A stretch of DNA of 64,000 nucleotides from an uncultured Planctomycetaceae bacterium (GCA_964570285.1 CAZMXP010000008.1:36659-100658); one strand, 5' to 3'; positions 8,174 through 64,000 are shown, counted from the stretch's first letter. Program-made: numbers and translations. The notes: generated from the sequence alone by a model not told the origin.

Positions 8174-8214
8174 GGTTCCTTCCTCCGCGCCCGCGGCGCG
8201 CCGCTAACGAGCCC

Positions 8215-10071: not shown

Positions 10072-10107
10072 CGCGCCTCCTGCGTCATGTTTCGTCCGGT
10101 TGCAAGG

Positions 10108-12474: not shown

Positions 12475-15400
12475 ATGTATTCGATGACGCGCCGGGCGCT
12501 GGCCCGGCTCATCCTGGGGGCCGCCGTGCTCTGCGGCTGCGTCCCGTTCGCGGAGACGACCCCGTCCGGGTCGGCCTCCTCGGTCGGGCTCGTGGTCGAT
12601 GCGGCGTCGCTCTCGGTAGCCGAGGGAGGCACGGCCGTGCTGGGCCTGCGGCTCTCGGAGAATCCCGGTCGTGCCGTCGCGGTGACGGCGAAACTGACCG
12701 GATCGACCGGTCCCTTCGCGATCACGGAGGGTGCGAGCCTTCCGTTCGGCGTCTCGGACTGGGACACCGTGAAGTTCGTCCGCGTGCTCTCGAGCACGGA
12801 CACGAACACGACCCACGACACGACGACGCTGAGGATCGAGGTGGACGGCCGCTTCTTCCTGAGCGTCGGAGTCACCGAGGTGGATGGAGGCACGAGCGTG
12901 CCCCCGCCCGAGCCGCCTCCCGCCGAGGAGCCCCCGGCCGAGGAGCCGCCCGCTCCCGCCCCGGTCCCGCCGGCACCCGTTCCGCCCGTGCCGCCCGTCG
13001 ATCCGGGGGAGCCGCAGGAGGGCGTCACGCTGACGGTGAAGGATGCCTCGGGCATCGGCGCGATCGACTATCCGGTCACCGCGATCATCCCCGTCAGCTA
13101 CGGGATCTACCAGGACACGTCCCGGTTCCGCATCGTGGACGGCCAGGGGAACCCGGTGGCGGCCCAGTTCGAGGTCCTCAACCGCTGGCCGGTGCGCGAC
13201 AACAGCATCCGGCACGTCGTCGCCCACTTCCAGGCTTCCGTCGGCGCCGCCAGCAAGGCCTACTACGCCTTCCAGACGAAGGGCGCCGGGCCCGCGCCGC
13301 AGAAGGCGGTCCGCGTGACCGACGGTTCGGGCGTCGTCACGGTGGACACGGGGGCCCTCAGGTTCACGATCAAGAAGAGCGGCTTCAACCTCTTCGATGA
13401 GGTCTGGCTCGATACGAACGGCGACGGCAGCTACGCCGCCTCCGAGCGCATCGTCGCGCCGAACGGCGATGTCGGCGCCACGCTCACCGATCGCCACGGC
13501 AACAAGCAGCGCGCCAGCGACCGGACCGACCTGCGGGTCGTGATCGAGGAGAGCGGACCGATGCGGAGCGTCATCCGCGTGAGCTCGCTGAGCAAGTTCT
13601 TCAGCGCGAGCGACCACCGCCACGGCTTCGCCGCACGCATCTACGCCTACGCCGGCAAGTCCTTCGTCAAGGTGGACTACCAGCTCCAGAACTCGGCGAA
13701 GAACGCCCGCTACAGCGCCCCTCTCTACTTCGACGACGTGTCGCTGACGCTCCGGCCTTCGCTGACGAGCCCCACCGCCCGCTTCGCGGCGGGCGCGGGC
13801 AACGTCTGGTCGGGCGGCGTCAGCAGCGGCCGCTACCTGCTCCAGAACTCGCTGACCGCGACGACGGTGAATCCCTCGGGAGGAGGCTCCGCCCTCCTCA
13901 CCGGGACCAACGTCGCCGCCGAGGCGTCCTGCGCGTGGGGCGACCTGTCCGACTCCCAGCGCGGCGTCTTCGTCACGGTCCGCCACATGGCGGAGATGTG
14001 GCCGAACGCGCTGGAGGTCTCGCCGGACAACACGGTGACCGTCGGCCTCTGGCCGAAGTACAGCGCGCAGTACCACAACGGCGCGATGACCGAGTCGGGA
14101 CTCTACTGGCTCGAGGACATGCAGCAGGTCTACAAGGAGTCGCTCATCTACTTCCACGGGGCGAACGTCGCCTCGACCGAACTGGACCGTCTCGCGAAGA
14201 CCTTCCAGTACCACCCGATCCCCTTCGTGCCGATCGCGGAGTACGCACGCACGAAGGTCACCCTCGACCTGGGCGGGATCGTGCCGATCACCGAGCCGGT
14301 GGGCGGTACCGACACCCGTCGGATCCTCTTCACGCCTTCCTACTACCGGCAGGAGTCCGTCACGCCGGGGAACACCCGCTACAACTTCGGCTGGATGAAC
14401 TTCCTCGGCGACGTGGCGCGCAAGCGTCCCGGCGGCGCGGGCGGCATCTTCTACAGCTCGAGCCGGATCATCGCGACCGAGCGGGTCGACGAGTGGCTGA
14501 CCGGCGAAGGCGCCGCGATCGGCGAGCTCAACTGCCGTCCCCAGTGGATCGCGGAGTACAAGTATCCCGACGACTACGCGCTCCTCCAGCCGTCGCAGGA
14601 TCCCTACGGCTCGCGTTCGTGGCGCGCGCACGTCACGGGCAGCGAACCCGACCTGCCCAACGTCGTCGACTACCTCCCCGGCACCGGCCACGGCGGCTGG
14701 TCGCCGCGGGACAACCAGCACGGCTGGTTCTACCACGTCGAGGAGTTCTACAACCTCTCCGCGAATCCTTGGATCCGCGACTGGTACGAGTTCATCGGCG
14801 AGTTCCGCAAGACGGAACGCTCCAACCCCGGCCTGTCGAACTGGAGCGTGCTCTCCAAGCAGGGCTGGGAGTCCGTCCGCGGGGAGGCCCACGCGTTCGC
14901 GCATGCGATGCAGGCCTTCCGCGTCACGGGCAACAAGTCGATCATCGAGTGGGCCCGCATGCGGCTCGACAGCTTCGAGTCGCGCTTCGACCCCGAGTGG
15001 GGCATGTTCATGAGCGGCGGAGACTGGGACAACAAGGGCTCGGTCTTCGAGCACGGCTACCTGACCAAGGCGCTGAGCCAACTCTACGAGGAGGCGGAGA
15101 ACGGCGACCGCGAGATCCAGGACCGGACCTTCCACCTCGTGTGGGGGGCCATGGCCTGGAACGACGGCCATGCCACCTTCGGCTACCACGTCACCAACCG
15201 GAACGCCACGGGCTACCCCTACTCCAGCGCCGGCTCGGCGCTGGTCACGGGCGATCCCCACGCCTGGGTGGCGTGGAAGTTCGGCGCCCCCCAGTACCTG
15301 GCCACGGTGAACGGCTACATCGACACGGGCCTGAACGGCGGCAGTCCGCCCTACCACGACATCGCCGACCTGAGGAACTGGACGGGCGGTGCGTGCGGTC

Positions 15401-15768
15401 GGGTGACGCAGTGGGTCCGGAAGTATCCGCCCGTGGCGGACGGCCCTGCGAAGGTGTCCAACCTCTCGGCCCGCACGGCGAGCGGCAAGGTGGAGATCAG
15501 CTTCACGACCCCCGCCACCGCGACGCGCGTGCATGTCGTCTACTCCACGCTCCCGATCTCCGCGACCTACACCAAGGACGCGGCGAAACGGAATCCGTGG
15601 GGCTGCAAGGCGGTCCCGAACACGCTCGTCTGCACGCCCGGTGCGACCCAGTCGCTGCAGTTCGGCGGCGCGCCCTCGGGCAAGACGATCTACGTGGCCG
15701 TCATCATGTTCAACGCGCAGGGGCACATGAGCCCGCTCTCCAACGTGGCGACGGTGACGGCACCGTAG
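12475..15768 (+). CDS. Large secreted lipoprotein (1097 aa) with a Pro-rich linker and multiple beta-rich domains; possibly a polysaccharide-lyase or hydrolase, function unknown.
   Basis: Signal peptide with lipobox LCGC. PPPEPPPAEEPP... linker. RBS GGAGGTAGGAG 8 nt upstream. Long, uniform-codon-usage ORF. Confidence 0.8.
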   Translation: MYSMTRRALARLILGAAVLCGCVPFAETTPSGSASSVGLVVDAASLSVAEGGTAVLGLRLSENPGRAVAVTAKLTGSTGPFAITEGASLPFGVSDWDTVKFVRVLSSTDTNTTHDTTTLRIEVDGRFFLSVGVTEVDGGTSVPPPEPPPAEEPPAEEPPAPAPVPPAPVPPVPPVDPGEPQEGVTLTVKDASGIGAIDYPVTAIIPVSYGIYQDTSRFRIVDGQGNPVAAQFEVLNRWPVRDNSIRHVVAHFQASVGAASKAYYAFQTKGAGPAPQKAVRVTDGSGVVTVDTGALRFTIKKSGFNLFDEVWLDTNGDGSYAASERIVAPNGDVGATLTDRHGNKQRASDRTDLRVVIEESGPMRSVIRVSSLSKFFSASDHRHGFAARIYAYAGKSFVKVDYQLQNSAKNARYSAPLYFDDVSLTLRPSLTSPTARFAAGAGNVWSGGVSSGRYLLQNSLTATTVNPSGGGSALLTGTNVAAEASCAWGDLSDSQRGVFVTVRHMAEMWPNALEVSPDNTVTVGLWPKYSAQYHNGAMTESGLYWLEDMQQVYKESLIYFHGANVASTELDRLAKTFQYHPIPFVPIAEYARTKVTLDLGGIVPITEPVGGTDTRRILFTPSYYRQESVTPGNTRYNFGWMNFLGDVARKRPGGAGGIFYSSSRIIATERVDEWLTGEGAAIGELNCRPQWIAEYKYPDDYALLQPSQDPYGSRSWRAHVTGSEPDLPNVVDYLPGTGHGGWSPRDNQHGWFYHVEEFYNLSANPWIRDWYEFIGEFRKTERSNPGLSNWSVLSKQGWESVRGEAHAFAHAMQAFRVTGNKSIIEWARMRLDSFESRFDPEWGMFMSGGDWDNKGSVFEHGYLTKALSQLYEEAENGDREIQDRTFHLVWGAMAWNDGHATFGYHVTNRNATGYPYSSAGSALVTGDPHAWVAWKFGAPQYLATVNGYIDTGLNGGSPPYHDIADLRNWTGGACGRVTQWVRKYPPVADGPAKVSNLSARTASGKVEISFTTPATATRVHVVYSTLPISATYTKDAAKRNPWGCKAVPNTLVCTPGATQSLQFGGAPSGKTIYVAVIMFNAQGHMSPLSNVATVTAP

Positions 15769-35306: not shown

Positions 35307-36461
35307 TCAGAAGAAGGCGGACTCCGACTCGACCATCGTCAGGAACCAGTTGTCGAGCGAGTAGGCCTCCTCGGGCAGCGCCTTCGTCCGCGAGATCATC
35401 AGTTCGTAGCCGTTGGAACGCCGGAAGCCGGCCGAGCGGCACGCCGCGCCGATGTGCGGGTCGGAGGTGAGCACCTCGAGCACGTCGGCGCGCTCGCGCG
35501 CGGCGAGGCGGAGGAGGTGGTAGACGGCGGAGCGGGCCGCCTCGTCGGAGGCCGGTCGCGCGAGGTCGAGGACGCGGCAGACGCGGACGTCGCGGTACTC
35601 CTGGCTTCCGACGCGCTCGTGGGTGGCGACGCGCAGCAGGAAGTGGCCGGCGGTCGCTCCCGAGCCGTCCAGCACGCGGAAGGCGCGCCCGCGGACCGCC
35701 GGATTGCGGCGCACGAAGCGCAGCTTCCAGTTGAGGTAGGCGCAGCCCCGCCGCACGTGGGCGCGCGGCGCCCCCGCCGCGTCGACCTCGGGAACATCCC
35801 CGAAGGAGTCCACCTCCTCGAGGGAGAGGCCGGCCGCGGAGGGACGCAGGCGCGCGCGCTGGAGGAGCGACCAGGAGCGCAGCAGGGGATTGGCGCAGGC
35901 GGCGGCCGCCCATGCGAGCGGAGCGCTGCGCACGTGGCGACGCAGGATCGGGCCGCTGCGGAGCGGCATCACCCAGCGGGCCGCGAGGCCCACGTTCGCC
36001 ATGCGGAGCGCGGTCATGAGCCGGTTGGCGTAGGGGGTGGCCCCGTAGGCGCTGAAGGGCAGGTTCCGCGCCGCAAGATGCGCCAGCAGCTCCCGCAGCA
36101 GAAGCCCGCCCACGCCGGCGGCGCGGCGGTCGGGGTGCGAGAAGAGGCTGTGGCCCGTGACGCAGGGATACTCCCGCCCGCCGATGCGCAGCGGCTGGCT
36201 GATCAGCGCCATGCTCGCGACCCGGACGCCGTCGATGGAGAGCGCCGTGGCGACAGGCACGTCGGCGGCCAGGTCGGGGTGGGAGCGCACGAGTTCCCAG
36301 ATCGCCCCCGGCATGAGCTCGACCGCGGCGGGATCGGCGGGCCAAAGGAAGGCCTCGCCGCGCTCCTCGAGTTCAGGGCGCGTGAACGTCTCGAATTCGG
36401 TCTTCATGGCGGCCGGGCGCGGCCCGGGAGCGGCGGGGTCGTCGATCCGTTCAGGAGACAC
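35307..36461 (-). CDS. GNAT-like acyltransferase-family protein (putative N-acyltransferase paired with ACP and FkbH).
   Basis: Overall GNAT-like composition; position immediately downstream of the ACP gene. Weak motif support. Confidence 0.45.
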   Translation of the reverse strand: MSPERIDDPAAPGPRPAAMKTEFETFTRPELEERGEAFLWPADPAAVELMPGAIWELVRSHPDLAADVPVATALSIDGVRVASMALISQPLRIGGREYPCVTGHSLFSHPDRRAAGVGGLLLRELLAHLAARNLPFSAYGATPYANRLMTALRMANVGLAARWVMPLRSGPILRRHVRSAPLAWAAAACANPLLRSWSLLQRARLRPSAAGLSLEEVDSFGDVPEVDAAGAPRAHVRRGCAYLNWKLRFVRRNPAVRGRAFRVLDGSGATAGHFLLRVATHERVGSQEYRDVRVCRVLDLARPASDEAARSAVYHLLRLAARERADVLEVLTSDPHIGAACRSAGFRRSNGYELMISRTKALPEEAYSLDNWFLTMVESESAFF

Positions 36462-36699
36462 CCTTGGAGGCGAGGCAGCGGAAGAGGTCGCCGACGTGCT
36501 GCATCCCCGCCAGTTCCGCGGTCGTAAAGGTGACGCCGAGCTTCTCCTCGAGTTCCATCACGATCACGATGTTATTGACGGAATCCCAATTGTCGACGTC
36601 CTTGGCGGCGAGGGCGTCGTGCACGACCAGATCCGGCTTCCCGAGGACGTTCCGGAAGATCTCCTGGACACGGTCCCGGACGGACGTTTCGGTCCTCAT
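36451..36699 (-). CDS. Acyl carrier protein.
   Basis: 82 aa, ...DVDNWDSVNNIVIVMELEEKLGV..., with a Ser in a DS motif at the helix-2 N-cap. ATG at 36699 overlaps the FkbH stop. Confidence 0.7.
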   Translation of the reverse strand: MRTETSVRDRVQEIFRNVLGKPDLVVHDALAAKDVDNWDSVNNIVIVMELEEKLGVTFTTAELAGMQHVGDLFRCLASKGVS

Positions 36700-38480
36700 C
36701 GGATGCCCTCCTGCGGGACCTTCAGCGAGACCCGGATCGGCAGCGGTTCGGGAGAGTGCCGCTCGACCTCGAGGCTGAAGCGCTGCACGTCCCCGGAACT
36801 CCCCTCTTCCGCGAATCCCATGCGGGGGAAGAGGTCGGCGACCATCTTGTTCTTGGAGCTGGGGCGGTACTGGCCGACGACGCGGGTGCAGCCCAGCTCG
36901 CGCGCACGCTCGCAGAGGAGCGTGATCGTCAGCTCCTCGACCTTGCGGCCGAGAACGCGGCAGCTCATCACCCAGGTGTCCACGACGAGGTCGGTGCCGT
37001 CGCGCTCGGCCACGACGCAGACGACGATGCCGTTGTCGCCCAGCCGGTCGAGCAGCCGGATCGTGAAGGTGAGATGGCGCTCCGACGCCGCGAACCCGGC
37101 GAGGGCGGCATCCCCGTGGCGGTAGGTCGTCAGGTTGAACTGGTTGCTCCGCTGGATGAGCTGGGCGACGCGGGGAAGCGAATAGCGGCTGAACGGGGCG
37201 ACCTCGGCGACCATGTCGAGGTTCTTGAGGTAGGACTCGAGGTCGGCGAACGAGTCGCGAAGCTCCACGCGCTTCACGTTCGCCTTGTACATGCCGACGC
37301 GCTCCAGGTCCTCCTCGGTGAAGTCGGGGGTCTCGAAGAGGTTCCAGCGGGCCAGCGCGCTCACGAACTCGGCGGGATCCTCGGGCATGTCGGGGACCTG
37401 GACCTCCGGCAGCGCCGTGCGGACGAGGTCGCGCTCGAACGGCGAGTCGTCGAGGAAGACGAACGAGTCGAGCCCGAGATCGAGCATCTCGCGGATCCGC
37501 CGGATGTTGCCCGCCTTGTTCTCGTAGTTCGCGATGAACGCGACGATCGCATCCTCCTTCAGCACCATCTCGGGGTGCGTGCGGAAGGCCTCGCGCGCGG
37601 TCTCCTCGTGGTTCTTGCTGCAGACCGCGAGCAGGATGCCGCGGTCCTTGAGCTGCGCGATCGACCGCTGGAAGCGCTGGAAGGCGAGGCCGACGCCGGC
37701 GTCCCCGAGTTCGATCCCGTCCACGCCGTCGTCGCCGAGGATGCCGGACCAGAGCGTGTTGTCGAGGTCGAGCACGACGCACTTCGCCATCGCGCCGAGC
37801 CGCGCGAGGATCACGTCGCTGACGACCTTCGCGAGAGGCGGCAGGAACTTCGGCGAGAGCGCCTGCTTCGCCTGGCACCAGAAGCGTTCGCTCAGCCACT
37901 CCCGCTTGCCGTGGTAGGCGGCCTGGTAGTCGTTGTCGACCACGGCGACCCCCTTGCGCGACGCGGACGCCTCCGCGAGGAGGTCGTTGATGCGCCGCAC
38001 CGCGAACGGGAACGACGCGGGGCACTGCGACGTGTAGTTGCCGAACGGCCGCTCCAGCGGCAGGCAGTAGTTGTGGTGGATGACGGTGACGGAGCCGCCC
38101 TCGAGCAGGCGGTCCCAGTGGTGCACGATCTCCGCCGCGACCGCGCTCGCGAACCCGGGCTTGTCCTGCGCGTCGGCCCACCGGTCCTGCAGCGTCTGCA
38201 CCGCCTGGAAGAGCACGACAAAGACGGGACGATGCGCGTAGAGCCCGCTCCGGGGATCGAGGATCTCCTGGCTGATCTGCCGGAACTCCGCCTCGTAGAT
38301 GTGCGGCCAGCAGCCGCGCAGCTTGAGGACCGCCGCGAGGGTCTGCGTGTAGTTCTGCGTCGCGCAGTCCCCGAGGACGGCGATCCTCGACGAACGCGCG
38401 CACTTCTCCGGGGTGGCTTCGGCCGCCTGCGCGGCCAACTGGGGAATGGAAAGCTCCGCGAGCTTCCAGGCCTGCATCAT
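36696..38480 (-). CDS. FkbH-like HAD-superfamily IIIC phosphatase/acyltransferase.
   Basis: ...KCVVLDLDNTLWSGILGDDGV... (HAD motif I, DxDxT); ...FLDDSPFER... (motif III). C-terminal GNAT-like part. Start MMQAWK with GGAGGA RBS. Confidence 0.7.
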   Translation of the reverse strand: MMQAWKLAELSIPQLAAQAAEATPEKCARSSRIAVLGDCATQNYTQTLAAVLKLRGCWPHIYEAEFRQISQEILDPRSGLYAHRPVFVVLFQAVQTLQDRWADAQDKPGFASAVAAEIVHHWDRLLEGGSVTVIHHNYCLPLERPFGNYTSQCPASFPFAVRRINDLLAEASASRKGVAVVDNDYQAAYHGKREWLSERFWCQAKQALSPKFLPPLAKVVSDVILARLGAMAKCVVLDLDNTLWSGILGDDGVDGIELGDAGVGLAFQRFQRSIAQLKDRGILLAVCSKNHEETAREAFRTHPEMVLKEDAIVAFIANYENKAGNIRRIREMLDLGLDSFVFLDDSPFERDLVRTALPEVQVPDMPEDPAEFVSALARWNLFETPDFTEEDLERVGMYKANVKRVELRDSFADLESYLKNLDMVAEVAPFSRYSLPRVAQLIQRSNQFNLTTYRHGDAALAGFAASERHLTFTIRLLDRLGDNGIVVCVVAERDGTDLVVDTWVMSCRVLGRKVEELTITLLCERARELGCTRVVGQYRPSSKNKMVADLFPRMGFAEEGSSGDVQRFSLEVERHSPEPLPIRVSLKVPQEGIR

Positions 38481-38664
38481 GTCCTCCGGGTCAGAAAGCA
38501 ACCCCCACAACCATCGGCATTTGCGCCACGCGAGTATAGGGCGCGAGACGGCCCCACGCCCCATCCTGGGGAGGGCCGACCAGAAGCCGCGCCGTCGGGG
38601 GGGCGCGGGGGGCGTGGCCCGGAGTGCCGCCGCTCCCGCGACCACGCCCGGCCCTGAAGCGCGG

Positions 38665-39084
38665 CTACGGCTCCATCATCGAGTGGGCACTCTCCCCCGT
38701 CGCGAGCAGGCGGCCCGACTCCTCCTCGACCTTGAGTCGGATCCGGACCGAGCGCACGGCGGCGCTCACCTGCGCCACCGTGGCGGTGAGGCGGAGGCGG
38801 CAGGGGGCGTAGCAGGGGGCGCGGAAGACGAGATCGAGCTTCTGGAGCAGGCTCAGCGAGCCGGGCATCTCGGTCCCCACGAGGCGCGACACGAAGGCCG
38901 CGAGCAGCGCGCCGTGCACGAGCGTGCCGGAGAACCCGCGCGTTCCTGCATAGGCCGCATCGGTGTGCAGCGGGGCATCGTCCCCGCTCAGCTCGATGAA
39001 GCGCCTGACCGTGTCGGGGGTGATCTCGACCTGCAGCACGGCCTCGTCCCCCGCCTTGAGTTCCTCGAGCCGTCGTGCCGTCAT
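38665..39084 (-). CDS. MaoC-like (hot-dog fold) dehydratase.
   Basis: ...ELSGDDAPLHTDAAYAGTRGFSGTLVHGAL... MaoC signature. Confidence 0.7.
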   Translation of the reverse strand: MTARRLEELKAGDEAVLQVEITPDTVRRFIELSGDDAPLHTDAAYAGTRGFSGTLVHGALLAAFVSRLVGTEMPGSLSLLQKLDLVFRAPCYAPCRLRLTATVAQVSAAVRSVRIRLKVEEESGRLLATGESAHSMMEP

Positions 39085-39114
39085 GCCCGCGGATTGTACG
39101 GACCCGCCCCCCCT

Positions 39115-40401
39115 TCAGTTCGACCGGAGCGCGCGGATGGGATCGATCCTCGCCGCGCGGGCGGCGGGATAGAGGCCGCCGGCGACACTCACCAGCGTCG
39201 CGAAGAGCAGCGCGCCCCAGAGCAGCCACGCCGGGAAGTGGAAGACGGCCACGCGGGTCTCCACGCCCTGCGCGCCCGCATAGGCGTTGACGAAGAAGCC
39301 GAGCAGCCACGAGACGGCGCGGCCGAGCGCGAGCCCGCCCAACCCGCCCGCCAGTCCGACGACCAGCGCCTCGACGAGGAAGATCGTGCGGATGTCGCCG
39401 TCGGAGGCGCCGATCGCCTTGTAGACGCCGATCTCGGTCGTCCGCTCCAGCACCGCGACGATCAGCGTGTTGAGGATGCCGAGCCCCGCCACGACGAGGG
39501 CCACCGAGCCGACCGCCGCGAGCAGGATCTCGAGCACGAGGAAGAACCGCTTCATCTCCTCGCTGCGGCCGAGGAGCGTCGTCGTGGCGTATCCGAGTTC
39601 CCGGATGCTCTTCTCGATGCCAAGCACGTGCGACGGCCGCTCCGCGACCACGATGACCTGGCTGTAGCCCTCCCCCTCCGGCCCGTGGCCGCGTTTCAGG
39701 CGGTCGAACGCGCCCCGATAGCGGCTCCCCGGCAGTTCCCGGATCAGCTCGATCGGCAGCAGGACGACATCCCCACCGAGATGGAACGCCTGCGCCGGGG
39801 GCTCGAAGACGCCGGCCACCGTGACCGTCGCCTCGCGCTCCTCGTACTGGAACCGCTCCTCCTCCTCGGGCGTCAGGCCGCGCGCCCGCAGCACGATCGC
39901 CTGCCCGACCGCGTCGGCCGCCCCGCCAAACCCGAGGCGCCGCGCGAGCGCCCCGGCGATCAGCGCCTCCGCGACCGCTCCCCGCTCGAAGAGGCGCCCC
40001 GCGACGAGCAGCCCCCGGAGGTAGCCGAGACCGCCCCCCTCCGACGGGAGCCCCAGCGCGAGCCCGCGCTCCGTGCGGTCTCCGCGGCGGATCTCGATGT
40101 CGGCGAGCCGGAAGTGCGGATAGGCCGCCGCAACGTGAGGCAGTGCGGCCAATCGCGCGATGGTGTCGTCGGTCAGCGGGAGCGTCTCGCCCGGTTGCAC
40201 CTGGATGCGCTGGAGGATCTCCATCTGGCGGAACGACTCCTGGCCCTCGCGCTGCAGCCCGAGCGCGAAGCCCACCATCGAGACGAGCGCGCCGGTGGCG
40301 ATGGCCACGCCTGCCGCCGTGAGGCCCAGGCGAAGCGGCGTCCGCCGCGCCCCTTCGAGCGCGAGCTTCGCGAGGTCCCAGGTCCGCGCCAGCGCCCTCA
40401 T
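39115..40401 (-). CDS. ABC transporter permease, FtsX/LolC/LolE family.
   Basis: N-terminal TM, large periplasmic loop and C-terminal three-TM FtsX domain. ATGA overlap with the upstream ATPase gene. Confidence 0.75.
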   Translation of the reverse strand: MRALARTWDLAKLALEGARRTPLRLGLTAAGVAIATGALVSMVGFALGLQREGQESFRQMEILQRIQVQPGETLPLTDDTIARLAALPHVAAAYPHFRLADIEIRRGDRTERGLALGLPSEGGGLGYLRGLLVAGRLFERGAVAEALIAGALARRLGFGGAADAVGQAIVLRARGLTPEEEERFQYEEREATVTVAGVFEPPAQAFHLGGDVVLLPIELIRELPGSRYRGAFDRLKRGHGPEGEGYSQVIVVAERPSHVLGIEKSIRELGYATTTLLGRSEEMKRFFLVLEILLAAVGSVALVVAGLGILNTLIVAVLERTTEIGVYKAIGASDGDIRTIFLVEALVVGLAGGLGGLALGRAVSWLLGFFVNAYAGAQGVETRVAVFHFPAWLLWGALLFATLVSVAGGLYPAARAARIDPIRALRSN

Positions 40402-41129
40402 CGCCCCCGCGCCCCCTCGAGACCCCCGTCGCGCAGGCGGAGCACGCGACCGCGGAGGCGCCCCGCCGACTCCTCGTCGTGCGTCGCGAGCACGACCGTC
40501 GTGCCGAATTCGCCGTTGATCTCGCAGAGCAGTTCCATCACGGCCTCCGCGTTCGCGCGGTCGAGGTTCCCCGTCGGCTCGTCGGCGAGCAGCAGGCGCG
40601 GGCGGTGGACGATCGCCCGGGCGAGGGCGACGCGCTGCTGTTCGCCCCCGGAGAGCTGGCTCGGACGGTGCCCGGCGCGCGCGCCCATGCCGAGGCGCCG
40701 CAGCGCCTCGCGCGCGAGGTCCCGGCGGAGGTGCGCCTCGGCGCCTTGGATCGTCAGCGCCAGCGCCACGTTCTGCTCGGCGGTCATGCTGGGGATGAGA
40801 TGGAAGGCCTGGAAGACGAAGCCGACCTCGCGGCGCCGGTAGAGCGCCCGCTGCTCCGACGTGAGCGAGCCGAGGTCGCGCCCGCCGACCGCCACGCTCC
40901 CCTCCGAGGGCCGGTCGAGCCCCCCGAGCAGATGGAGCAGCGTGGACTTCCCCGACCCGCTCCTCCCGGTGAGGCAGACGAACTCGCCCGCGGCGATGTC
41001 GAGGTCCACGCGGTCGAGCGCCCGCACGACCGCGGAGCCCACCGCGTAGCAGCGCGAGAGACCCCGCGCGACGGCCAAGGGCCCCTGCGCGCCGGGTGCG
41101 CCGCTCGGCGCGGTCTGCTCCGTAGGCAA
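40398..41129 (-). CDS. ABC transporter ATP-binding protein (LolD/MacB-type).
   Basis: Walker A GRSGSGKSTLL; LSGGEQQRVALARA; Walker B LLLADEPTGNLD. Confidence 0.85.
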   Translation of the reverse strand: MPTEQTAPSGAPGAQGPLAVARGLSRCYAVGSAVVRALDRVDLDIAAGEFVCLTGRSGSGKSTLLHLLGGLDRPSEGSVAVGGRDLGSLTSEQRALYRRREVGFVFQAFHLIPSMTAEQNVALALTIQGAEAHLRRDLAREALRRLGMGARAGHRPSQLSGGEQQRVALARAIVHRPRLLLADEPTGNLDRANAEAVMELLCEINGEFGTTVVLATHDEESAGRLRGRVLRLRDGGLEGARGR

Positions 41130-41195
41130 GGCTCGCGATTCTAGCCCGCGGTGCGAGGGGGCGCCGGCGCCTCGCGGGCCGGCGCCCCCCGGAGG

Positions 41196-43001
41196 TCACG
41201 CGCCGGCGCGTGCGCGCAGGCGCCTGCGCGCGGCGGCGGCGAGCCCCCCGATCCCGAGCAGGACGATCGTCGCGAGGTCCGCGCTGCCCCCGCCGCCGGG
41301 GGCCACCGGCGGCGCGGTCGCCGACGCGGGCGCGTAGGTGACCGAGGCCACGGCGACGCCGCTCGACCACTGGCCGGAGACGTCGCGGAAGCGCGCGTAG
41401 ACGTTCTTGGCGCCCGGGCTGATGCTTCCGCCGTACGCGTAGAGCGGCCAGTTCGCGCGCACCGAGGCGAAGGGCTCCGGCGGCGACCAGACCGTGTTGT
41501 CATTGGAGAAGCTCATCTGCGCGCCCGAACCCATGCCGGCGCCGGGCTGCGTGATGGAGAGCTGCAGGTCGACGGTCAGGTCGGGCGTCTCCGCGGCGCC
41601 GCTGCCGACGCGGACGGTTCCCGCGGGCGTGCCGGAGGCGGGGGGGGGCGCGGGGGGGGGCGTCGGAGGAGGCGTCGGGGAGCTGACCTCGCCCTTGATC
41701 GCGCCGTCGAGCTTCCATCCGGGATTGGTGCCCTCGCCCGCGTACGCGCCGCGGAAGGTCGCCGACCCCTTGGCCGTGCCGTTGAAGTCGCGGGCGTAGT
41801 CCGCGTGCCCGGTGAAGGCGGAGAGGTCGAGCGCGCTCCCTTGGCACTTCCCGGGATGCGGGTAGAAGTCCATCGACCCGAGCGTCGTGCTCGGCTGCTT
41901 CACGTGGAGATAGGCGTTCGCCGTCGTGTCGCTGATGTTGCCCGAGGAGTTCGTGATGCTGCCCGTCGCCCCCCGGTTCGTGAACATCAGGTTGCCCACC
42001 ACGCTGTGCCCCTCGCTGGCCGAGTTCGCGAAGTGGATCGCCCGGTCCATCGAGTAGAACGTGTTGTTGTAGACGTGGGCGAGCTTGAGCGTCTTGTTGT
42101 GGTTCGTGAGGTAGATGCCCGTGCCCGCGCAATCGACGAAGACGTTGTCGTGGATCGCGACGCGCCCCTCCGCCTGGATCAGCGATTCGCGGCCGTTGCG
42201 GCAGAAGAGGTTCCCGTAGACCTCGTAGAGGTCCGAGGAGCCGTTGCCCGAGTCGGGGAACCCGCCGAGCAGCAGATTGGGACGGGGCCCGTCCTCGTTG
42301 GGAAGCGTTCCCTTGATGAAGACGTTGTGGCGGATGATCGTCTTCTGCGGGGTCGTCGGCATGCCGGAGACGCCGGACCGCGAGTTCTGGTGCTTGATCT
42401 GCATGTTGTACCCCTTCGAGTCGAGGAAGAGGTTGTACTCGATCAAGCCTCCGATGAACGGCGCCGCCCCGTCGGAGTTCCCGAAGTAGATGCCGGTGCC
42501 CGCGGCGACGATCGTGTTGCGGCGCACGATCCAGCCCCAGGTGGTCGTCTTCGTCGAGATCCCGACGGTCTGCTGGTGCGCGCCGTGGCCCACGATCGTG
42601 CAGTTCTCGATGCGGACATGGTGCGTGTCGCTGCCCGCCGCGCTGATCCCGAAGATCCCGTCGATGTTCTGGCCGTCGATGACGAGGTTCTCGAGCGCGA
42701 AGTAGCTGCCGGTGCGGATCTCGATCGTGTTGCAACAGACCCTCGGATCGCCGAGGAACCGCGGCTTGGGACCCGTGTCGGGCCCCTTGATCGTGATCCA
42801 CGCGTCCGGCGTGCCGTTCACGTCGCGGATGTTCAGGAGTCCGGTGTAATCGCCCGGTGCAAGGACCAACGTGTCGCCCGGCTTCAAGGTCGAGAGGAGC
42901 GCCTTGTAGTTGGTCTGGTCGGCTTGGATGGTCGCCGCTTGCGCGACGCCCGCGGAACAATATAGGAGAAGGGCCCCGAGGACCCATGCTGTCTTACCCA
43001 T
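41196..43001 (-). CDS. Secreted right-handed beta-helix (pectate-lyase-fold) protein with a Pro/Thr linker and a C-terminal TM-plus-RRR sorting-like tail.
   Basis: Signal peptide MGKTAWVLGALLLYCSAGVAQA. Repeated ...NTI/NCTIVG/NNTF... beta-helix coil motifs. C-terminus ...GGGGSADLATIVLLGIGGLAAAARRRLRARAGA. Confidence 0.65.
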   Translation of the reverse strand: MGKTAWVLGALLLYCSAGVAQAATIQADQTNYKALLSTLKPGDTLVLAPGDYTGLLNIRDVNGTPDAWITIKGPDTGPKPRFLGDPRVCCNTIEIRTGSYFALENLVIDGQNIDGIFGISAAGSDTHHVRIENCTIVGHGAHQQTVGISTKTTTWGWIVRRNTIVAAGTGIYFGNSDGAAPFIGGLIEYNLFLDSKGYNMQIKHQNSRSGVSGMPTTPQKTIIRHNVFIKGTLPNEDGPRPNLLLGGFPDSGNGSSDLYEVYGNLFCRNGRESLIQAEGRVAIHDNVFVDCAGTGIYLTNHNKTLKLAHVYNNTFYSMDRAIHFANSASEGHSVVGNLMFTNRGATGSITNSSGNISDTTANAYLHVKQPSTTLGSMDFYPHPGKCQGSALDLSAFTGHADYARDFNGTAKGSATFRGAYAGEGTNPGWKLDGAIKGEVSSPTPPPTPPPAPPPASGTPAGTVRVGSGAAETPDLTVDLQLSITQPGAGMGSGAQMSFSNDNTVWSPPEPFASVRANWPLYAYGGSISPGAKNVYARFRDVSGQWSSGVAVASVTYAPASATAPPVAPGGGGSADLATIVLLGIGGLAAAARRRLRARAGA

Positions 43002-48497: not shown

Positions 48498-49598
48498 GTG
48501 AAGATCCTGAACGTCGTCGGGGCGCGCCCCAATTTCATGAAGATGGCGCCGCTCGTGCGCTGCCTGAGGGCGCGCGGCTACGCCCCGATGCTGGTGCACA
48601 CCGGCCAGCACTACGACGACAACATGTCGAAGGTCTTCTTCGACGACCTGCGCATGCCCCCGCCCGACATCCACTGCGGCGTCGGCTCGGGCTCGCACGC
48701 CGAGCAGACGGCGAAGGTGATGGTCGAGTTCGAGAAGATCTGCCTCGAGCACAAGCCCGACCTCGTCGTCGTCGTCGGCGACGTCAACTCGACGCTCGCG
48801 TGCAGCATCGTCGCGGCCAAGCTCTGGATCGCCGTCGCCCACGTCGAGGCCGGCCTGCGCTCCTTCGACATGCGCATGCCGGAGGAGGTCAACCGGCTCG
48901 TCACCGACCGCCTGAGCGAGATCCTGCTGACGCCCTCGCCGGACGGCGACGAGAACCTGCTCCGGGAGGGCGTGCCGCCCGAGCGGATCCACAGGGTCGG
49001 CAACATAATGATCGACTCCCTCTTCGACAACCTCGAGCGCGCCAAGGAGTCGACGGTCCTCTCCGATCTCGGCCTCGAACCGCACGGCTACGGCGTGCTG
49101 ACGCTGCACCGCCCCTCCAACGTCGACGACCCGGAGACGCTGCTGCGGCTCATGGAGGTGCTGCACGAGATCAGCGAGAGGCTCCCGATCGTCTTCTCCT
49201 GCCATCCCCGCACCGCCCAGCGGCTCGAACAGACCCCCGGCTACGGGGGACTGAAGCGGCGCGGCGACGTGAGGGTGCTGCCTCCGCTCGGCTACCTCGA
49301 CTTCCTCAGGCTCTCGTCCCAGAGCCGCCTCGTGCTGACCGACAGCGGCGGCCTGCAGGAGGAGACGACCGCGCTGCAGATCCCCTGCGTCACGCTGCGC
49401 GAGAACACCGAGCGCCCGATCACCGTCACCGAGGGCACCAACACCCTCGTCGGGACCGATCCGAAACAGATCCGCGCCGCCGCCCGCGCCGCCCTCGAAT
49501 CCGACCGCTCCACGCGCCGCGTCCCCGACCTCTGGGACGGCAAGACCGCCGCGCGTATCGTGGACGTCTTCGAGGCTTGGTGGAAGCGCCGTACCTGA
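48498..49598 (+). CDS. wecB: UDP-N-acetylglucosamine 2-epimerase (non-hydrolysing).
   Basis: GTG start with GGGGGGAGGAG RBS. KILNVVGARPNFMKMAPL...HTGQHYD... Confidence 0.85.
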   Translation: MKILNVVGARPNFMKMAPLVRCLRARGYAPMLVHTGQHYDDNMSKVFFDDLRMPPPDIHCGVGSGSHAEQTAKVMVEFEKICLEHKPDLVVVVGDVNSTLACSIVAAKLWIAVAHVEAGLRSFDMRMPEEVNRLVTDRLSEILLTPSPDGDENLLREGVPPERIHRVGNIMIDSLFDNLERAKESTVLSDLGLEPHGYGVLTLHRPSNVDDPETLLRLMEVLHEISERLPIVFSCHPRTAQRLEQTPGYGGLKRRGDVRVLPPLGYLDFLRLSSQSRLVLTDSGGLQEETTALQIPCVTLRENTERPITVTEGTNTLVGTDPKQIRAAARAALESDRSTRRVPDLWDGKTAARIVDVFEAWWKRRT

Positions 49599-50410
49599 TC
49601 ACCGGGGCCGCCGGCATGCTCGGCAGCCGTGCGCTCGCGGGCGCGCCCGAGGGCGTGCGCGCGGTCGGTGCAAGGCGAGCCGACGGAGACCTCGCCGACC
49701 GCCGCTCGGTCGACCGCCTCTTCCGCGCGCTCGGCCCCCTCCGCGGCGTGCTCCACGCCGCCGGTTTCACCGGGGTCGATCGCGCCGAGTCCGAGCCGGA
49801 GCAGGCGCGGCGCGACAACGTCGAGACGACCCGGCACCTCGCCGCCGCCTGCGCGGAGCGCCGGATCCCGCTGCTGCTCGTCAGCAGCGACTACGTCTTC
49901 GACGGCAGCGCCCAGCGCCCCTACCGCGAGGAAGATCCCCCGCACCCCCTCAACGTCTACGGAACAACCAAGCTCGAAGCGGAGCGGGTCGCCTTCGCGC
50001 TGCACCCCAGAGGCACGCTGGTCGTGCGCACCGCGTGGCTCTACGGCCCGGGCTTTCCCGATCGCATCCTCGCGCTGGCGCGGGAGCGCGAGACCCTCGA
50101 GGTCGTCGACGACCAGAGGGGGTCGCCCACCTCGACGGCGGAGCTGGTTCCCGCGCTGTGGGATCTCCTGGGGTCGGGGGTTCTCGGCACCTTCCACGCG
50201 GCCTGCGAGGGCGTGGCCTCCTGGTGCGACGTCGCCCGGGCCTGCCTCGGGGAGGGGCGCGTGCGCGCCTGCACCACCGCGGAGTTCCCGCGCCCGGCCC
50301 GCCGGCCGGCGATGAGCGCGCTCGACTCCGGGAAGCTCGCCGCGCAGCGCGGCCGCCCGCTCCGCCATTGGCGTGAGGCCCTGATGCGGTATCTTGCGGA
50401 TCGCCCATGA
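49580..50410 (+). CDS. rfbD: dTDP-4-dehydrorhamnose reductase.
   Basis: ...[10 protein letters not shown]... Rossmann motif; ...[34 protein letters not shown]... GTG start overlaps the wecB 3' end. Confidence 0.8.
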
Positions 50411-51414
50411 CGACCGTGCTCGTGACCGGCGGCGCCGGGTTCATCGGCAGCAACCTCATCCGGCTGCTGCGCGCGACGCGCCCCGGGTGGCGCGTGGTCA
50501 ATCTGGACCTGCTGACCTACGCGGGCAACCTCGCCAACCTCGAGGGCGTGGAGCAGGAGTTCGTGCGCGGCGACGTCGCCGAGCCCGCGGACGTGCACCG
50601 CGCCTTCGACGCGGCCGGGGAGGGGGCGCTCGTCGTGCACCTCGCCGCCGAGAGCCACGTCGACCGGTCGATCCGGTCGAGCCTCCCCTTCCTGCGCACG
50701 AACGTGCTCGGCACGCAGGTGCTCTTGGACGTGGCGCGGGAGCGCCGCGCGGGCCGCCTCCTGCACGTCTCGACCGACGAGGTCTACGGATCGCTGCCGG
50801 AGGGCGTCTTCGCCGACGAGGGAGCGCGCCTGAACCCGTCGAATCCCTACGCGGCGAGCAAGGCGGCGAGCGACCACCTCGTGCTCGCGGCGGTGCGGAC
50901 CCACGGCGTCGATGCCGTCCTCACGCGCTGCTCGAACAACTACGGCCCCTACCAGTTCCCGGAAAAGGTCGTGCCGCTGATGATCGCGAACGCGCGCGAC
51001 GGGCGGCCGCTGCCGCTCTACGGCGACGGCCTGCACGAGCGCGACTGGATCCACGTGGACGACCACGGCGAGGCGCTGCTCGCGGTGCTGGAGCGCGGGC
51101 GGACGGGCGAGGTCTACAACGTCGCGGGCCGCAGCCACAGGAGCAACCTCGACCTCGCTCGATTCCTGCTCGCGACGCTCGGAAAACCCGAATCGCTGAT
51201 CGCCCACGTGAAGGACCGCCCGGGCCACGACCGGCGCTACGCGCCGGACGGCGGCAAGATCGAGCGCGAGCTCGGCTGGAAGCCGCGGCGGCGGTTCGAC
51301 GAGGCGATGGCGGGCGTCGTGCGCTGGTACGACGGCAACGGGCCCTGGCTCGACAGGGTGCGCAGCGGCGCCTACCGGCGCTACTACGCGGAGCAGTACG
51401 GGGCGAGGGCATGA
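50407..51414 (+). CDS. rfbB: dTDP-glucose 4,6-dehydratase.
   Basis: [21 protein letters not shown]...; [12 protein letters not shown] catalytic YxxxK. Confidence 0.9.
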
Positions 51415-52286
51415 GCGCGCGCAAGGGGATCATCCTCGCGGGCGGCTCGGGCACGCGGCTCTACCCGAGCACGAAGGCGACGAGCAAGCAGCTGCTGCCG
51501 GTCTACGACAAGCCGATGATCTACTACCCGCTGAGCACGCTGATGCTCGCGGGCATCCGCGACATCCTCGTCATCACGACGCCGCGCGACGAGCCGAGCT
51601 TCGAGGCGCTGCTCGGCGACGGCAGCGCGTGGGGCATCGGGATCCGCTATGCGACGCAGCCGCGGCCGGAGGGCATCGCGCAGGCCTTCCTGATCGGCGA
51701 GTCCTTCCTCGGCGGCGCGCCGGTCGCGCTGATCCTCGGCGACAACATCTTCTTCGGGCAGGGGCTCTCGCGCCGGCTGCAGGAGATCTCCGCGCGCACC
51801 GACGGCGCGACGGTCTTCGCCTACCGCGTGCGCGACCCGGAGCGCTACGGCGTCGTCGAGCTGAACGAGGACGGCACCCCCCGCGCGATCGTCGAGAAGC
51901 CGCGGGATGCGCGCAGCAACCTCGCCGTGACGGGCCTCTACTTCTACGACCGCGACGTCTGCGGGATCGCCCGCCGCCTGCGGCCAAGCGCCCGGGGCGA
52001 GCTCGAGATCACCGACGTGAACGCCGCCTACCTCGCCAGAGGCGCGCTCGGCGTCGAGCATCTCGGCCGCGGCATGGCGTGGCTCGACACCGGAACCTGC
52101 GAGTCGCTCTTGCAGGCGACGAACTTCATCGAGACGGTCGAGTCGCGGCAGGGGCTCAAGATCGCCTGCCCCGAGGAGGTCGCGTGGCGCATGAAGTTCA
52201 TCGACGACCGCCAGCTTGCGCGCCTCGCTTCGGAGGCGGGCGAGTGCGCCTACGGCCGCTACCTGAAGGGGCTCCTCCCCGCGTGA
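51411..52286 (+). CDS. rfbA: Glucose-1-phosphate thymidylyltransferase.
   Basis: [38 protein letters not shown]... is canonical RmlA. Confidence 0.9.
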
Positions 52287-52831
52287 GGGCCCGGCAGACC
52301 TCCCTGCCCGGGGTCCTCGTCGTCGAACCGACCCTCTTCCGCGACGCGCGCGGGCACTTCCTCGAGACCTACAGCGAGCCGCGGTACACGGCCCTCGGGC
52401 TCCCTCCACAATTCGCGCAGGACTGCCTCTCCCGCAGCGGCGAGGGCGTCCTGCGGGGCATCCACTACCAGTGGCCGAACCCGCAGGGCAAGCTCGTCTG
52501 GGTGGCCGAGGGCGCCGTGCTCGACGTCGCGATCGACCTGCGCCGCTCCTCGCCGCACTTCGGCAGGTGGGAGGCGCACGAGCTCGACGCCGAGAGCGGA
52601 AGGCAGCTCTGGATGCCGGAGGGTTTCGCCCACGCCTTCCTCGTCACGAAGGCGCCCTGCCTCTTCGCCTACAAGTGCACCCGCCTCTACGATCCGAAGG
52701 GCGAGCGCGCCATCCGCTGGGACGACCCCGACCTCGCGATCCGCTGGCCGATCAGCGGGCCGATCCTCTCCGACAAAGACCGCCGCGCCCCCCTACTCCG
52801 CACCATCCCCCGCCCCCACCTCCCCGAATAG
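52283..52831 (+). CDS. rfbC: dTDP-4-dehydrorhamnose 3,5-epimerase.
   Basis: GTGA overlap with rfbA; ...[18 protein letters not shown]...; ...HAFLVT... cupin motif. Confidence 0.85.
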
Positions 52832-53010: not shown

Positions 53011-53892
53011 TCACTCGACAAAGCGCATGCGCCCGTCCTCGCGCCAGCCGTTGGCATCGAGCACGCGGGAAGTCAGACGCTTCTTGTCGGGCTGCAGCAC
53101 GCTGAGGTCGACGCTGTTTGCCGCGTAGGCGTCCCAGTTGGCGTCCATCGTGGTGCCGCTCAGCCCGCCGCCCTTGTACCAGTTGAAGCTAGCGTAGAGC
53201 GGGGAGTACCCCGAGTTGTACGGGGTCGGGGTCGAAATGGTTCCGCGCACGCGCTGGTCGCCCCCCGACGCGGGGCCGATGAGCTGCCCGCCACCCCGGC
53301 ACTCGTATGCGATGCGCATGCCACTCACGCAGTAGCCCTTGAGGCTCATGTTGCCCGAGTCCGCCCTGTCCGGGCCGGCCTTGCCGACGGTGCTTTGGGC
53401 CGCGAGCGCGACGCTGAACTTCGCCTCGCCCACCGCGTTCGCCCGGAGTTCCACGCGCACGGCCCCGATGGTGAAGTCCCGGTTCTGGATGTGCAGCGTC
53501 TTCGCGCTGTTCAGCGTCGCGGTCAGGCTTACCTTGCGGACCTTGTCGCCTCGCTTGTGCACCACCTCCTTCTTGTAGACGACGATGCCGCCGAGCCCCG
53601 CGGCCGCCTTCACGATCGACGCGCGATCCCGGGACGCCGTCCCGCCCGCGTAGACGTCGTTGACGATGGCCGATTCGCCGAGAAGCTGCGGCGTGATCCG
53701 CGTCGCGAGCGCCACGTTCGCGGTGTCGTAGCTGCCCAAGGCGTTCCCCGCGAACCGCGCCCAGCAGTAGCCGCTCTTCTCCGGGTCGCCGTTCTCGAGG
53801 ACCCATTCGTTCCTCTGGTTGGGGTAGCGCTCCGCCGAGGCCATGCCTGCGAGGCAGGCCAGCGCGATCCAGTATCGGTTGAAGTTGCTCAT
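53011..53892 (-). CDS. Secreted hypothetical protein, paralog A of a duplicated family (Cys-containing, Gly-rich).
   Basis: Signal peptide MSNFNRYWIALACLAGMASA. ...SLKGYCVSGMRIAYECRGGGQLIGP... is shared with the partial gene at 63589. Confidence 0.6.
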   Translation of the reverse strand: MSNFNRYWIALACLAGMASAERYPNQRNEWVLENGDPEKSGYCWARFAGNALGSYDTANVALATRITPQLLGESAIVNDVYAGGTASRDRASIVKAAAGLGGIVVYKKEVVHKRGDKVRKVSLTATLNSAKTLHIQNRDFTIGAVRVELRANAVGEAKFSVALAAQSTVGKAGPDRADSGNMSLKGYCVSGMRIAYECRGGGQLIGPASGGDQRVRGTISTPTPYNSGYSPLYASFNWYKGGGLSGTTMDANWDAYAANSVDLSVLQPDKKRLTSRVLDANGWREDGRMRFVE

Positions 53893-63588: not shown

Positions 63589-64000
63589 TCAGCGCACGAG
63601 CACGAAGCTGTCGGACTCGGACCAGCCGTTGCCGTCGAGGATGTGGGCCTTGAGCCACTTCCCGTCGGGCTGCTTCGCCTCGATGTCGACCCCCTTCGCC
63701 GCGTAGGCGCTCCAGTTGGTTTTCATGGTCGTGCCGCTCAGCCCTCCGCCCTTGGCCACGTTGAAGCGGGCGACCAGCGGAGATTGTCCCGCGCCGTACT
63801 GGCCCGGTGTCTCGATGGTGCCGCGCACGCGCTGGTCCCCGGCCTCCGTGGGGCCGATGACGCGCCCGCCGCCCCGGCACTCGTAGGCGATGCGCGCGCC
63901 GCTCACACAGTAGCCCCTGAGGCTCATGCTGCCCGAAACCGCCCTGTCCTTGTTCGCGCGATCCACGGCGCTCTGGGCCTCGAGCGCGACGTTGAACCGC
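63589..64000 (-). CDS. Secreted hypothetical protein paralog B (C-terminal part; the gene continues past the window end).
   Basis: ...MSLRGYCVSGARIAYECRGGGRVIGPTEAGDQRVRGTIETP...GGGLSGTTM... is collinear with paralog A residues ~175-293. Confidence 0.6.
   Translation of the reverse strand, partial: RFNVALEAQSAVDRANKDRAVSGSMSLRGYCVSGARIAYECRGGGRVIGPTEAGDQRVRGTIETPGQYGAGQSPLVARFNVAKGGGLSGTTMKTNWSAYAAKGVDIEAKQPDGKWLKAHILDGNGWSESDSFVLVR

Follow-up and report, generated by a model that had tools for sequence, protein, structure and literature searches.

The charge of exopolysaccharides (EPS), capsules and O-antigens, their antigenicity, their recognition by phages and the properties of biofilms are governed by acyl decorations. 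In D-alanylation by DltA, DltC, the MBOAT protein DltB and DltD, the acyl group intended for an envelope polymer is brought by a carrier protein, while AlgI, AlgJ and AlgX serve O-acetylation. The NodB/NodA/NodF and LpxC/LpxD systems rely on de-N-acetylation followed by N-acylation from a charged acyl carrier protein (acyl-ACP). Enzymes of the OzmB/FkbH type remove phosphate from 1,3-bisphosphoglycerate, bind the glycerate to a cysteine as a thioester and hand it over to an ACP. Here we address a group of seven genes that includes an FkbH homologue and lies at positions 35307-43001 of a DNA stretch from an uncultured Planctomycetaceae bacterium (GCA_964570285.1, CAZMXP010000008.1:36659-100658). 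The whole stretch, 64 kb long with ~72% G+C, is referred to as the window; its genes were taken from a listing of open reading frames (ORFs) together with a gene call based on G+C content in third codon positions (GC3), and the domains of the seven gene products were assigned by Pfam and NCBIfam scans against curated cut-offs.

Full-text searches tie FkbH almost solely to products of polyketide synthases (PKS) and non-ribosomal peptide synthetases (NRPS), and those directed at polysaccharides, capsules and MBOAT proteins returned natural-product work only. Within this field, proteins with dehydratase and ketoreductase activities (DH-KR) convert glyceryl-S-ACP to lactyl-S-ACP for the starter units of FR901464 and lankacidin (PMC4765723). 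The only glycan-linked FkbH met in the searched literature belongs to the flagellin glycosylation locus of Campylobacter jejuni, where a strain carrying a pseudogene in place of the fkbH-domain gene cj1302 lacks pseudaminic acids modified by dimethylglyceric acid; the modification depends also on cj1295, and for a second strain devoid of these sugars the loss of cj1302 is not reported (PMC7099621, PMC3068675). The link is circumstantial. That locus has in common with the window an FkbH-domain gene in glycan surroundings and an acyl group derived from glyceric acid on the glycan, but sugar, organism and partner enzymes are different there.

The seven genes are co-directional on the minus strand and possess the domains ascribed to them in a first-pass annotation of the window, including the FkbH-like HAD-IIIC enzyme. 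The same annotation described them as mostly overlapping, which proved to be overstated: overlaps, of 4 nucleotides (nt) each, exist at two of the six junctions only (ACP/FkbH and FtsX/ABC), and the remaining gaps comprise ~43, 184 (MaoC-FkbH), 30 and 66-117 nt (beta-helix-ABC). With modest confidence we propose that the region comprises three separate things, namely a cassette for acylation of EPS with a three-carbon (C3) unit, an independent ABC-FtsX transporter and a beta-helix enzyme of the EPS locus. The first of them, MaoC-FkbH-ACP-GNATL (35307-39084), where GNATL denotes a tandem-GNAT acyltransferase, is most likely a recurring polysaccharide-tailoring cassette that would add a C3 acyl group to EPS; we infer the functions of all its members from gene content, motifs, folds and co-occurrence.

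The FkbH enzyme (36696-38480, minus strand) is composed of an FkbH_N domain (PF21211, 6e-30), a HAD-IIIC phosphatase domain and a C-terminal domain bearing a cysteine, and scores well above the cut-offs of both TIGR01686 (307.8 vs 146.65) and the HAD-SF-IIIC model TIGR01681 (70.3 vs 35.75). The HAD motifs DLDnTlW (LDLDNTLW in the window), SKN and DD are conserved among 76 homologues, and Cys507 within WVMSCRV (MSCR) is invariant in 100% of them. Over its N-terminal two-thirds the protein matches the Bacteroides fragilis structure 3SLR (BF1531) at 9.5e-74. By analogy with the cysteine that carries the glyceryl thioester in OzmB, Cys507 is the putative thioester cysteine here. As far as motifs are concerned the enzyme appears catalytically complete, and formation of glyceryl-S-ACP from 1,3-bisphosphoglycerate is proposed for it. 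The stand-alone ACP (36451-36699, minus strand; 82 aa) slightly exceeds the PP-binding cut-off (PF00550, 21.6 bits vs 20.8), contains the serine motif DNWDS and is encoded by the gene that overlaps the FkbH stop by 4 nt. FkbH loading systems of the OzmB/Tmn16 type (TIGR01686) share with the window the HAD-IIIC DxDxT motif, the invariant cysteine and a dedicated ACP next door, whereas the window differs from them in having no PKS or ketosynthase, in the partnership with a stand-alone tandem GNAT and in the EPS-locus setting.

The fourth member, a MaoC hot-dog dehydratase of 139 aa (38665-39084, minus strand; PF01575, 49.4 vs 27), has the sequence FIELSGDDAPLH, in which, as read from the sequence, the Asp and His of the hydratase-2 motif are kept (SGDDAPLH) and the motif Asn is replaced by Ala. 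Its association with FkbH and ACP was traced by scanning the FkbH protein against 185,579 species genomes, which gave 80 loci from many phyla with 26-46% identity; six-frame ORFs of these loci were searched with the window proteins, considering 5 kb either side of FkbH. Within this distance a relative of the ACP was found in 50 loci, of MaoC in 22 and of the ABC or FtsX protein in 2. When all neighbours were clustered for the 56 closest loci, ACP turned out to adjoin FkbH in 55 of them and MaoC was present in 25, which together with the rarity of ABC/FtsX marks MaoC, and not the exporter, as a frequent companion of FkbH-ACP. In one locus from Brocadiia (L083) MaoC is fused to a short-chain dehydrogenase/reductase (SDR) and placed between the ACP and GNATL genes. 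The DH-KR system and the cassette thus have in common a hot-dog dehydratase coupled genetically to FkbH-ACP, and the MaoC::SDR fusion follows the same two-step logic; the window differs by a small MaoC-type protein in place of a PKS DH domain and by the lack of an adjoining reductase.

GNATL (35307-36407, minus strand; 366 aa) begins at the conserved ATG 36407 and not at GTG 36461 (384 aa), its relatives opening with M-K/R-T-x-F-E. The window protein falls below the Pfam cut-off (Acetyltransf_9, 20.1 vs 25) and was assigned by its family profile, which matches GNAT structures at 1e-8, and by the AlphaFold2 (AF2) model, which displays a tandem GNAT with pLDDT 94.3. A word-index search gave 5 relatives, and an exhaustive HMMER search revealed 157 clusters of ~360-375 aa; Acetyltransf_1, a generic GNAT model, matched 23 of 40 family members, and none of the models in the NCBIfam scans covers these proteins. 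A search of plasmids for GNATL yielded no match. The arginine and glycines of R95-x-x-G98-x-G100, corresponding to the GNAT pantetheine-binding loop R/Q-x-x-G-x-G/A, are conserved in the family. GNATL is presumably cytoplasmic, because neither a signal peptide nor a transmembrane segment is found in it.

FkbH, ACP and GNATL recur as a trio in Acidobacteriota, Brocadiia and metagenomic contigs. The order is GT4-FkbH-ACP-GNATL followed by deacetylase, Wzy_C and PMT_2 genes in L090 (Acidobacteriota), deacetylase-FkbH-ACP-MaoC::SDR-GNATL in L083, GNATL-FkbH-ACP-deacetylase-FemAB-like in L081 and GNATL-FkbH-ACP in L078; in L007 FkbH stands directly upstream of GNATL. Two further family members occupy the arrangement deacetylase-GNATL-AsnB-GT4 (L094) and a site with ACP, AMP-ligase and ATP-grasp genes on one side and a PEP-CTERM protein on the other (L008). 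A NodB-type deacetylase is encoded within two genes of GNATL in L081, L083, L090 and L094. Flanks of polysaccharide type are characteristic of most of the informative GNATL loci with readable flanks (L081, L083, L090, L094 and L095) and are complemented by the PEP-CTERM gene of L008; across the loci Wzy_C, GT4, AsnB and FemAB-like genes are among such neighbours. The flanks of L006/L007, L010 and L078 are uninformative as to pathway type. This recurrence supports the first-pass suggestion that FkbH, ACP and a GNAT-type acyltransferase form a functional trio tied to envelope polysaccharide genes, and within the searched literature the remark that no such pathway is described remains true of the FkbH-ACP-tandem-GNAT cassette, no paper having been found that describes a cassette with transferases of the GNATL family.

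The window itself offers a similar environment. Its part at 0.4-12 kb contains EPS genes of the XrtA/PEP-CTERM system with three markers above cut-off, that is a polysaccharide deacetylase at 467-1339 on the plus strand (TIGR03006, 311.3 vs 276.2), a FemAB-like protein (TIGR03019) and an amidotransferase (TIGR03108), the latter accompanied by two further AsnB paralogues within the first 12 kb. The first-pass annotation spoke of distant EPS genes of EpsH type; XrtA-system genes are present, but neither an exosortase gene nor PEP-CTERM proteins were found in the 64-kb window despite these markers. On the beta-helix side of the block, at 43.5-52.8 kb, a Big_7/Kelch secreted protein, a GT4 glycosyltransferase, a Wzx-type flippase, UDP-GlcNAc 2-epimerase and rmlDBAC are encoded; a Liv-type ABC importer (30.6-35.3 kb) borders the block on its other side. 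The EPS, GT4, Wzx, epimerase and rmlDBAC genes place the block in or beside a polysaccharide locus.

The following course of reactions is proposed. Judging by family membership and intact motifs, FkbH would accept 1,3-bisphosphoglycerate, its HAD domain would strip the phosphate, and the glyceryl unit would be held on Cys507 and passed to the adjacent ACP. MaoC would then probably dehydrate glyceryl-S-ACP, which bears a 3-hydroxyl, to enol-pyruvoyl- or pyruvoyl-S-ACP, and lactyl-S-ACP would result wherever a reductase is available, for example in L083 with its MaoC::SDR fusion; this step is suggested by co-occurrence and by the published DH-KR precedent. GNATL would move the C3 acyl group from ACP onto an acceptor amine in the cytoplasm. 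Gene neighbourhoods indicate that the acceptor is most likely an amino sugar of the EPS precursor whose amine was freed through de-N-acetylation by a NodB-type deacetylase, for which the XrtA-system enzyme at 467-1339 is a candidate in the window, the putative link spanning 35 kb. Clustering of a NodB-family deacetylase, a dedicated ACP and an N-acyltransferase in a glycan pathway is shared with NodB/NodA/NodF and LpxC/LpxD, from which the cassette differs by a tandem GNAT in place of NodA or LpxD, by a proposed acyl group that is C3 and hydroxylated rather than a fatty acid, and by the distant position of the deacetylase.

Alternatively, the product of the cassette might be a soluble metabolite of small size, for instance an amino acid or amine bearing an N-glyceroyl or N-lactoyl group, or a compound resembling tetronates, possibly exported by ABC-FtsX. 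In favour of this, all characterised FkbH enzymes come from PKS/NRPS natural-product pathways; a homologous FkbH-ACP pair resides within a PKS cluster on Methylosinus pOB3b3, and tandem GNATs include N-acyltransferases of small molecules, for example Eis and 2WPX. Family scans and the gene survey of the window, however, revealed no ketosynthase, PKS, NRPS or tetronate genes; most of the informative GNATL loci as well as the window are of polysaccharide type, and the closest FkbH relatives are paired with MBOAT, DHHW/AlgX or WcbI acyltransferases of polysaccharides. We therefore regard a soluble product as unlikely.

The fold of GNATL raises another alternative, in which the enzyme acylates an amine of a protein or peptide in the manner of N-myristoyltransferases (NMT) or FemAB, the target being a peptide substituent of XrtA-type EPS or a secreted protein. 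N-myristoyltransferases are indeed its best structural matches in Foldseek, along with the clavulanate-pathway tandem GNAT 2WPX and Eis (E ~1e-11), and in the window, L081 and L094 the cassette is found together with tandem GNATs of FemAB-like type and with amidotransferases of AsnB type. The extreme C-terminus of the GNATL family is also conserved, and in NMT the C-terminal carboxylate is catalytic. Nevertheless, the structural similarity is at fold level only (template modelling score ~0.5, 10-15% identity), no gene for a candidate substrate peptide is conserved beside GNATL, and the adjoining deacetylases indicate a sugar amine, which makes a peptide target quite improbable.

The first-pass annotation united all seven genes in a single module for making a lipid or envelope component with a glyceryl or acyl modification and exporting it by LolCDE/MacB-like machinery, or for lipid-anchoring the beta-helix protein. 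The exporter is formed by an FtsX/MacB-type permease with a periplasmic core domain (39115-40401, minus strand; 428 aa; PF02687, PF12704) and its partner ABC ATPase (40398-41078, or with a start at 41129, minus strand; PF00005, 3.9e-34). FtsX and MacB core domains were thus correctly recognised, but the scores are far below the cut-offs for LolCE (lolCE, 62.9 vs 362.45), LolD (TIGR02211, 226.9 vs 307.75) and the MacB equivalog (NF007826, 69.6 vs 966). LolCDE identity was rejected on these scores and on the presence of a single permease gene. Type VII ABC transporters of the MacB/LolCDE group have in common with the pair an FtsX permease with the MacB periplasmic core and a LolD/FtsE-like ATPase, while the pair differs by its low scores, the single permease gene, the separately encoded ATPase and the lack of a membrane-fusion protein gene among the annotated neighbours.

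A metagenome scan with the permease revealed four loci with 48%-identical orthologues (L096, L097, L099 and L100), all of which retain the ATPase adjoining the permease. None of the other members of the seven-gene set (MaoC, FkbH, ACP, GNATL or beta-helix) is encoded within 8 kb of these four pairs, their neighbours being glutamine synthetase, a CLC channel, an IS200 transposase and similar genes. By these comparisons the ABC-FtsX pair is a self-contained transporter of MacB type, predicted to be an independent neighbour of the cassette in this lineage.

The seventh gene (41196-43001, minus strand) encodes a secreted right-handed beta-helix protein of 601 aa with a signal peptide, an Ig-like domain and a C-terminal tail (PF13229 and PF05048, Beta_helix and NosD). 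Foldseek matched its AF2 model (pLDDT 89.8) to PL6 chondroitinase/alginate lyases, including alginate lyase 6KFN, to AlgE C5-epimerases and to the Vibrio polysaccharide lyase RbmB; the similarity is at fold level, with E-values from 1e-7 to 5e-4, TMt up to 0.70 (6KFN) and 12-17% identity. The protein has more than 1800 strong homologues. Orthologues occur in two EPS loci, L091, where their neighbours are Wzy, GT, DegT and FemAB-like genes, and L092, where two copies separate three AsnB genes from epimerase-rmlDBAC; in L093 the setting is unrelated. No FkbH or ABC-FtsX genes were found in these three loci. Given the modelled fold, the protein is best read as a lyase- or epimerase-like enzyme that would cleave or modify glycans and belongs to the EPS locus but not to the cassette.

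Its C-terminal tail GGGGSADLATIVLLGIGGLAAAARRRLRARAGA (41199-41303, minus strand) consists of a Gly-rich segment, a transmembrane helix (helix at residues 576-600 in the AF2 model) and an Arg cluster, and no other of the 54 window proteins has a tail of this kind. Its description as a sorting-like signal without P-E-P was right: PEP-CTERM identity was rejected, since TIGR02595 scores 7.5 vs a cut-off of 16 (E = 8.7) and the Pro-Glu-Pro motif is absent. Comparison with other CTERM models, including GlyGly-CTERM (TIGR03501), which the first-pass annotation had named as a likeness, and MYXO-CTERM (TIGR03901), gave no match at E <=10. Among the C-termini of 120 orthologues the three-part tail is present in most, with differing signatures: P0164 passes GlyGly-CTERM (22.3 vs 15.5), P0240, P0219 and P0176 pass MYXO-CTERM (29.1, 27.1 and 21.4 vs 20), and the 84%-identical relative P0158 stays just below the latter cut-off (18.5). 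The window tail thus sits where orthologues carry a signal of the rhombosortase or myxosortase type, yet is itself unclassified; through it the enzyme would be held at the cell surface. The three-part build and the position are shared with the GlyGly-CTERM/rhombosortase and MYXO-CTERM/myxosortase systems, whereas the window tail passes no curated model and contains no Cys. No gene for a sorting enzyme (rhombosortase or myxosortase) was seen in the 64-kb window, the sole part of the genome available. Depending on lineage, the orthologues P0157-P0275 end with GlyGly-CTERM, MYXO-CTERM with GCxC or unclassified Gly-rich G-[LIV]-[ED]-x-L tails, which suggests that sorting signals were repeatedly swapped on the conserved catalytic body of the enzyme.

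Several observations weigh against the subdivision into three parts and against the function proposed for the cassette. All seven genes run in one direction at short distances from each other, and no terminator is predicted within the block, so that co-transcription with the exporter is possible, and their order is kept in relatives with 76-87% identity. GNATL occurs in only 4 of the 80 FkbH loci, most of which have MBOAT instead, and its weak matches (28-46 bits) in L078, L081, L083 and L090 belong to a distant branch. The GNAT fold and R-x-x-G-x-G are compatible with acyl-CoA and acyl-ACP donors alike. In the window 35 kb separate GNATL from the nearest deacetylase; no reductase adjoins MaoC there, so the final acyl group may be glyceroyl, pyruvoyl or lactoyl.

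The arrangement of the genes, their short gaps and the terminator prediction are also what speaks for a single module, together with one locus from Planctomycetota (L031) where a fused ABC-FtsX gene is situated ~6 kb from FkbH-ACP-MBOAT-MaoC. However, order conserved among such close relatives attests only recent common ancestry, and the module question is therefore decided by more distant comparisons. In these the ABC-FtsX orthologues of four loci and the beta-helix orthologues occur without the rest of the set, FkbH has an ABC or FtsX relative nearby in just the two of 80 loci mentioned above, and MaoC goes with FkbH-ACP and not with the exporter. A lipid product or lipid anchoring is likewise not indicated: the FkbH-derived unit is C3, no fatty-acyl or lipid enzyme adjoins the trio in the window, and the Lol models are missed by a wide margin. 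A single make-and-export module is accordingly very improbable; gene adjacency appears to have been over-read, with the exporter and the beta-helix protein outside the cassette pathway. Affiliation with a lipid A or ornithine-lipid pathway was rejected, as no such model appeared in the family scans of the seven genes.

The proposed C3-acylation cassette can be set against the sister systems of the 56 closest FkbH loci, where besides ACP and MaoC the neighbours were MBOAT (40), a radical-SAM protein (17), a DHHW/AlgX protein (15) and a 364-aa membrane protein (11). Examples of FkbH-ACP-MBOAT among L011-L066 are L046:5634-7091, L056:7125-8528 and L031:12483-14144. In Clostridia such loci additionally contain one or two DHHW/AlgX proteins, and in Rhodospirillales, Magnetococcales and Planctomycetota they contain MaoC, the radical-SAM enzyme and the 364-aa membrane protein. 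This set looks like Dlt-type envelope acylation with FkbH replacing DltA, and no description of it was found in the searched literature. MBOAT and DHHW/AlgX proteins are what the sister systems share with Dlt and AlgI/AlgJ/AlgX, while the window differs by a soluble, presumably cytoplasmic transferase: tblastn with MBOAT, DHHW, radical-SAM and c8 representatives found nothing in it, and an MBOAT/Dlt-like mechanism was rejected for the window because no MBOAT or DHHW gene was detected.

Other partners of the pair are also met. On a Niveispirillum plasmid (L111, NZ_CP025615.1, 7806-12286) the genes after FkbH-ACP encode a polysaccharide acetyltransferase of the WcbI family and an SDR, and on a Rhodobacteraceae plasmid (L113, CP049034.1, 6491-12278) the order ACP-FkbH-MBOAT-VOC-acyltransferase is flanked by sulfotransferase genes; an FkbH homologue is present on pSymB of S. 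meliloti. Two unrelated FkbH cassettes, one with a tandem GNAT and the other with MBOAT, have after the transferase a small gene of the VOC/glyoxalase family (L006, 1442-1876; L113, 11341-11769), whose product may be a further accessory enzyme with a C3 keto-acyl intermediate as its substrate. By these variants FkbH-ACP appears to be a portable pair that donates acyl groups and can be combined with different transferases. It is conceivable, and we put it forward tentatively, that FkbH-ACP is a widespread and so far unrecognised donor of glyceroyl, pyruvoyl or lactoyl groups, derived from glycolysis, for envelope polysaccharides, with swappable transferases represented by a tandem GNAT, a WcbI-type enzyme or a Dlt-like MBOAT/DHHW set, and that the GNATL family is a new class of acyl-ACP-dependent glycan N-acyltransferases operating after NodB-type de-N-acetylation.

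Some features of the wider window deserve mention. In L092 (2228-16114) three AsnB genes, two beta-helix genes, UDP-GlcNAc 2-epimerase and rmlDBAC are all contiguous, and the counterpart blocks of the window (6173-11781 and 48498-52831) are ~36 kb apart, with the seven-gene set, the Liv importer and unrelated genes between the AsnB and epimerase-rmlDBAC blocks. This comparison suggests that the EPS locus of the window was rearranged or interrupted by insertion. A paralogous pair on the minus strand (53011-53892 and 63589-63999) shows 66% identity over 128 aa; its full-length copy, at 53011-53892, has a signal-peptide-like N-terminus and no Pfam or NCBIfam match, and the second copy extends past the window end. 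A 1094-aa protein encoded at 12484-15768 on the plus strand has a lipoprotein-like N-terminus and no NCBIfam match; it was considered as a paralogue of the beta-helix protein and rejected, no relationship between them having been found.

As proposed, the MaoC-FkbH-ACP-GNATL cassette would extend known ACP-dependent glycan acylation by a transferase family that is uncharacterised. If the proposed functions are true, FkbH chemistry, so far characterised for polyketide and non-ribosomal peptide pathways alone, would reach cell-surface glycans, and the GNAT family of 157 clusters, for which there is no family-specific curated model, would become defined. A function could then be assigned to the "HAD-IIIC family phosphatase" genes of polysaccharide loci, and a portable FkbH-ACP donor with swappable transferases would account for the glyceroyl, lactoyl and pyruvoyl substituents of bacteria.

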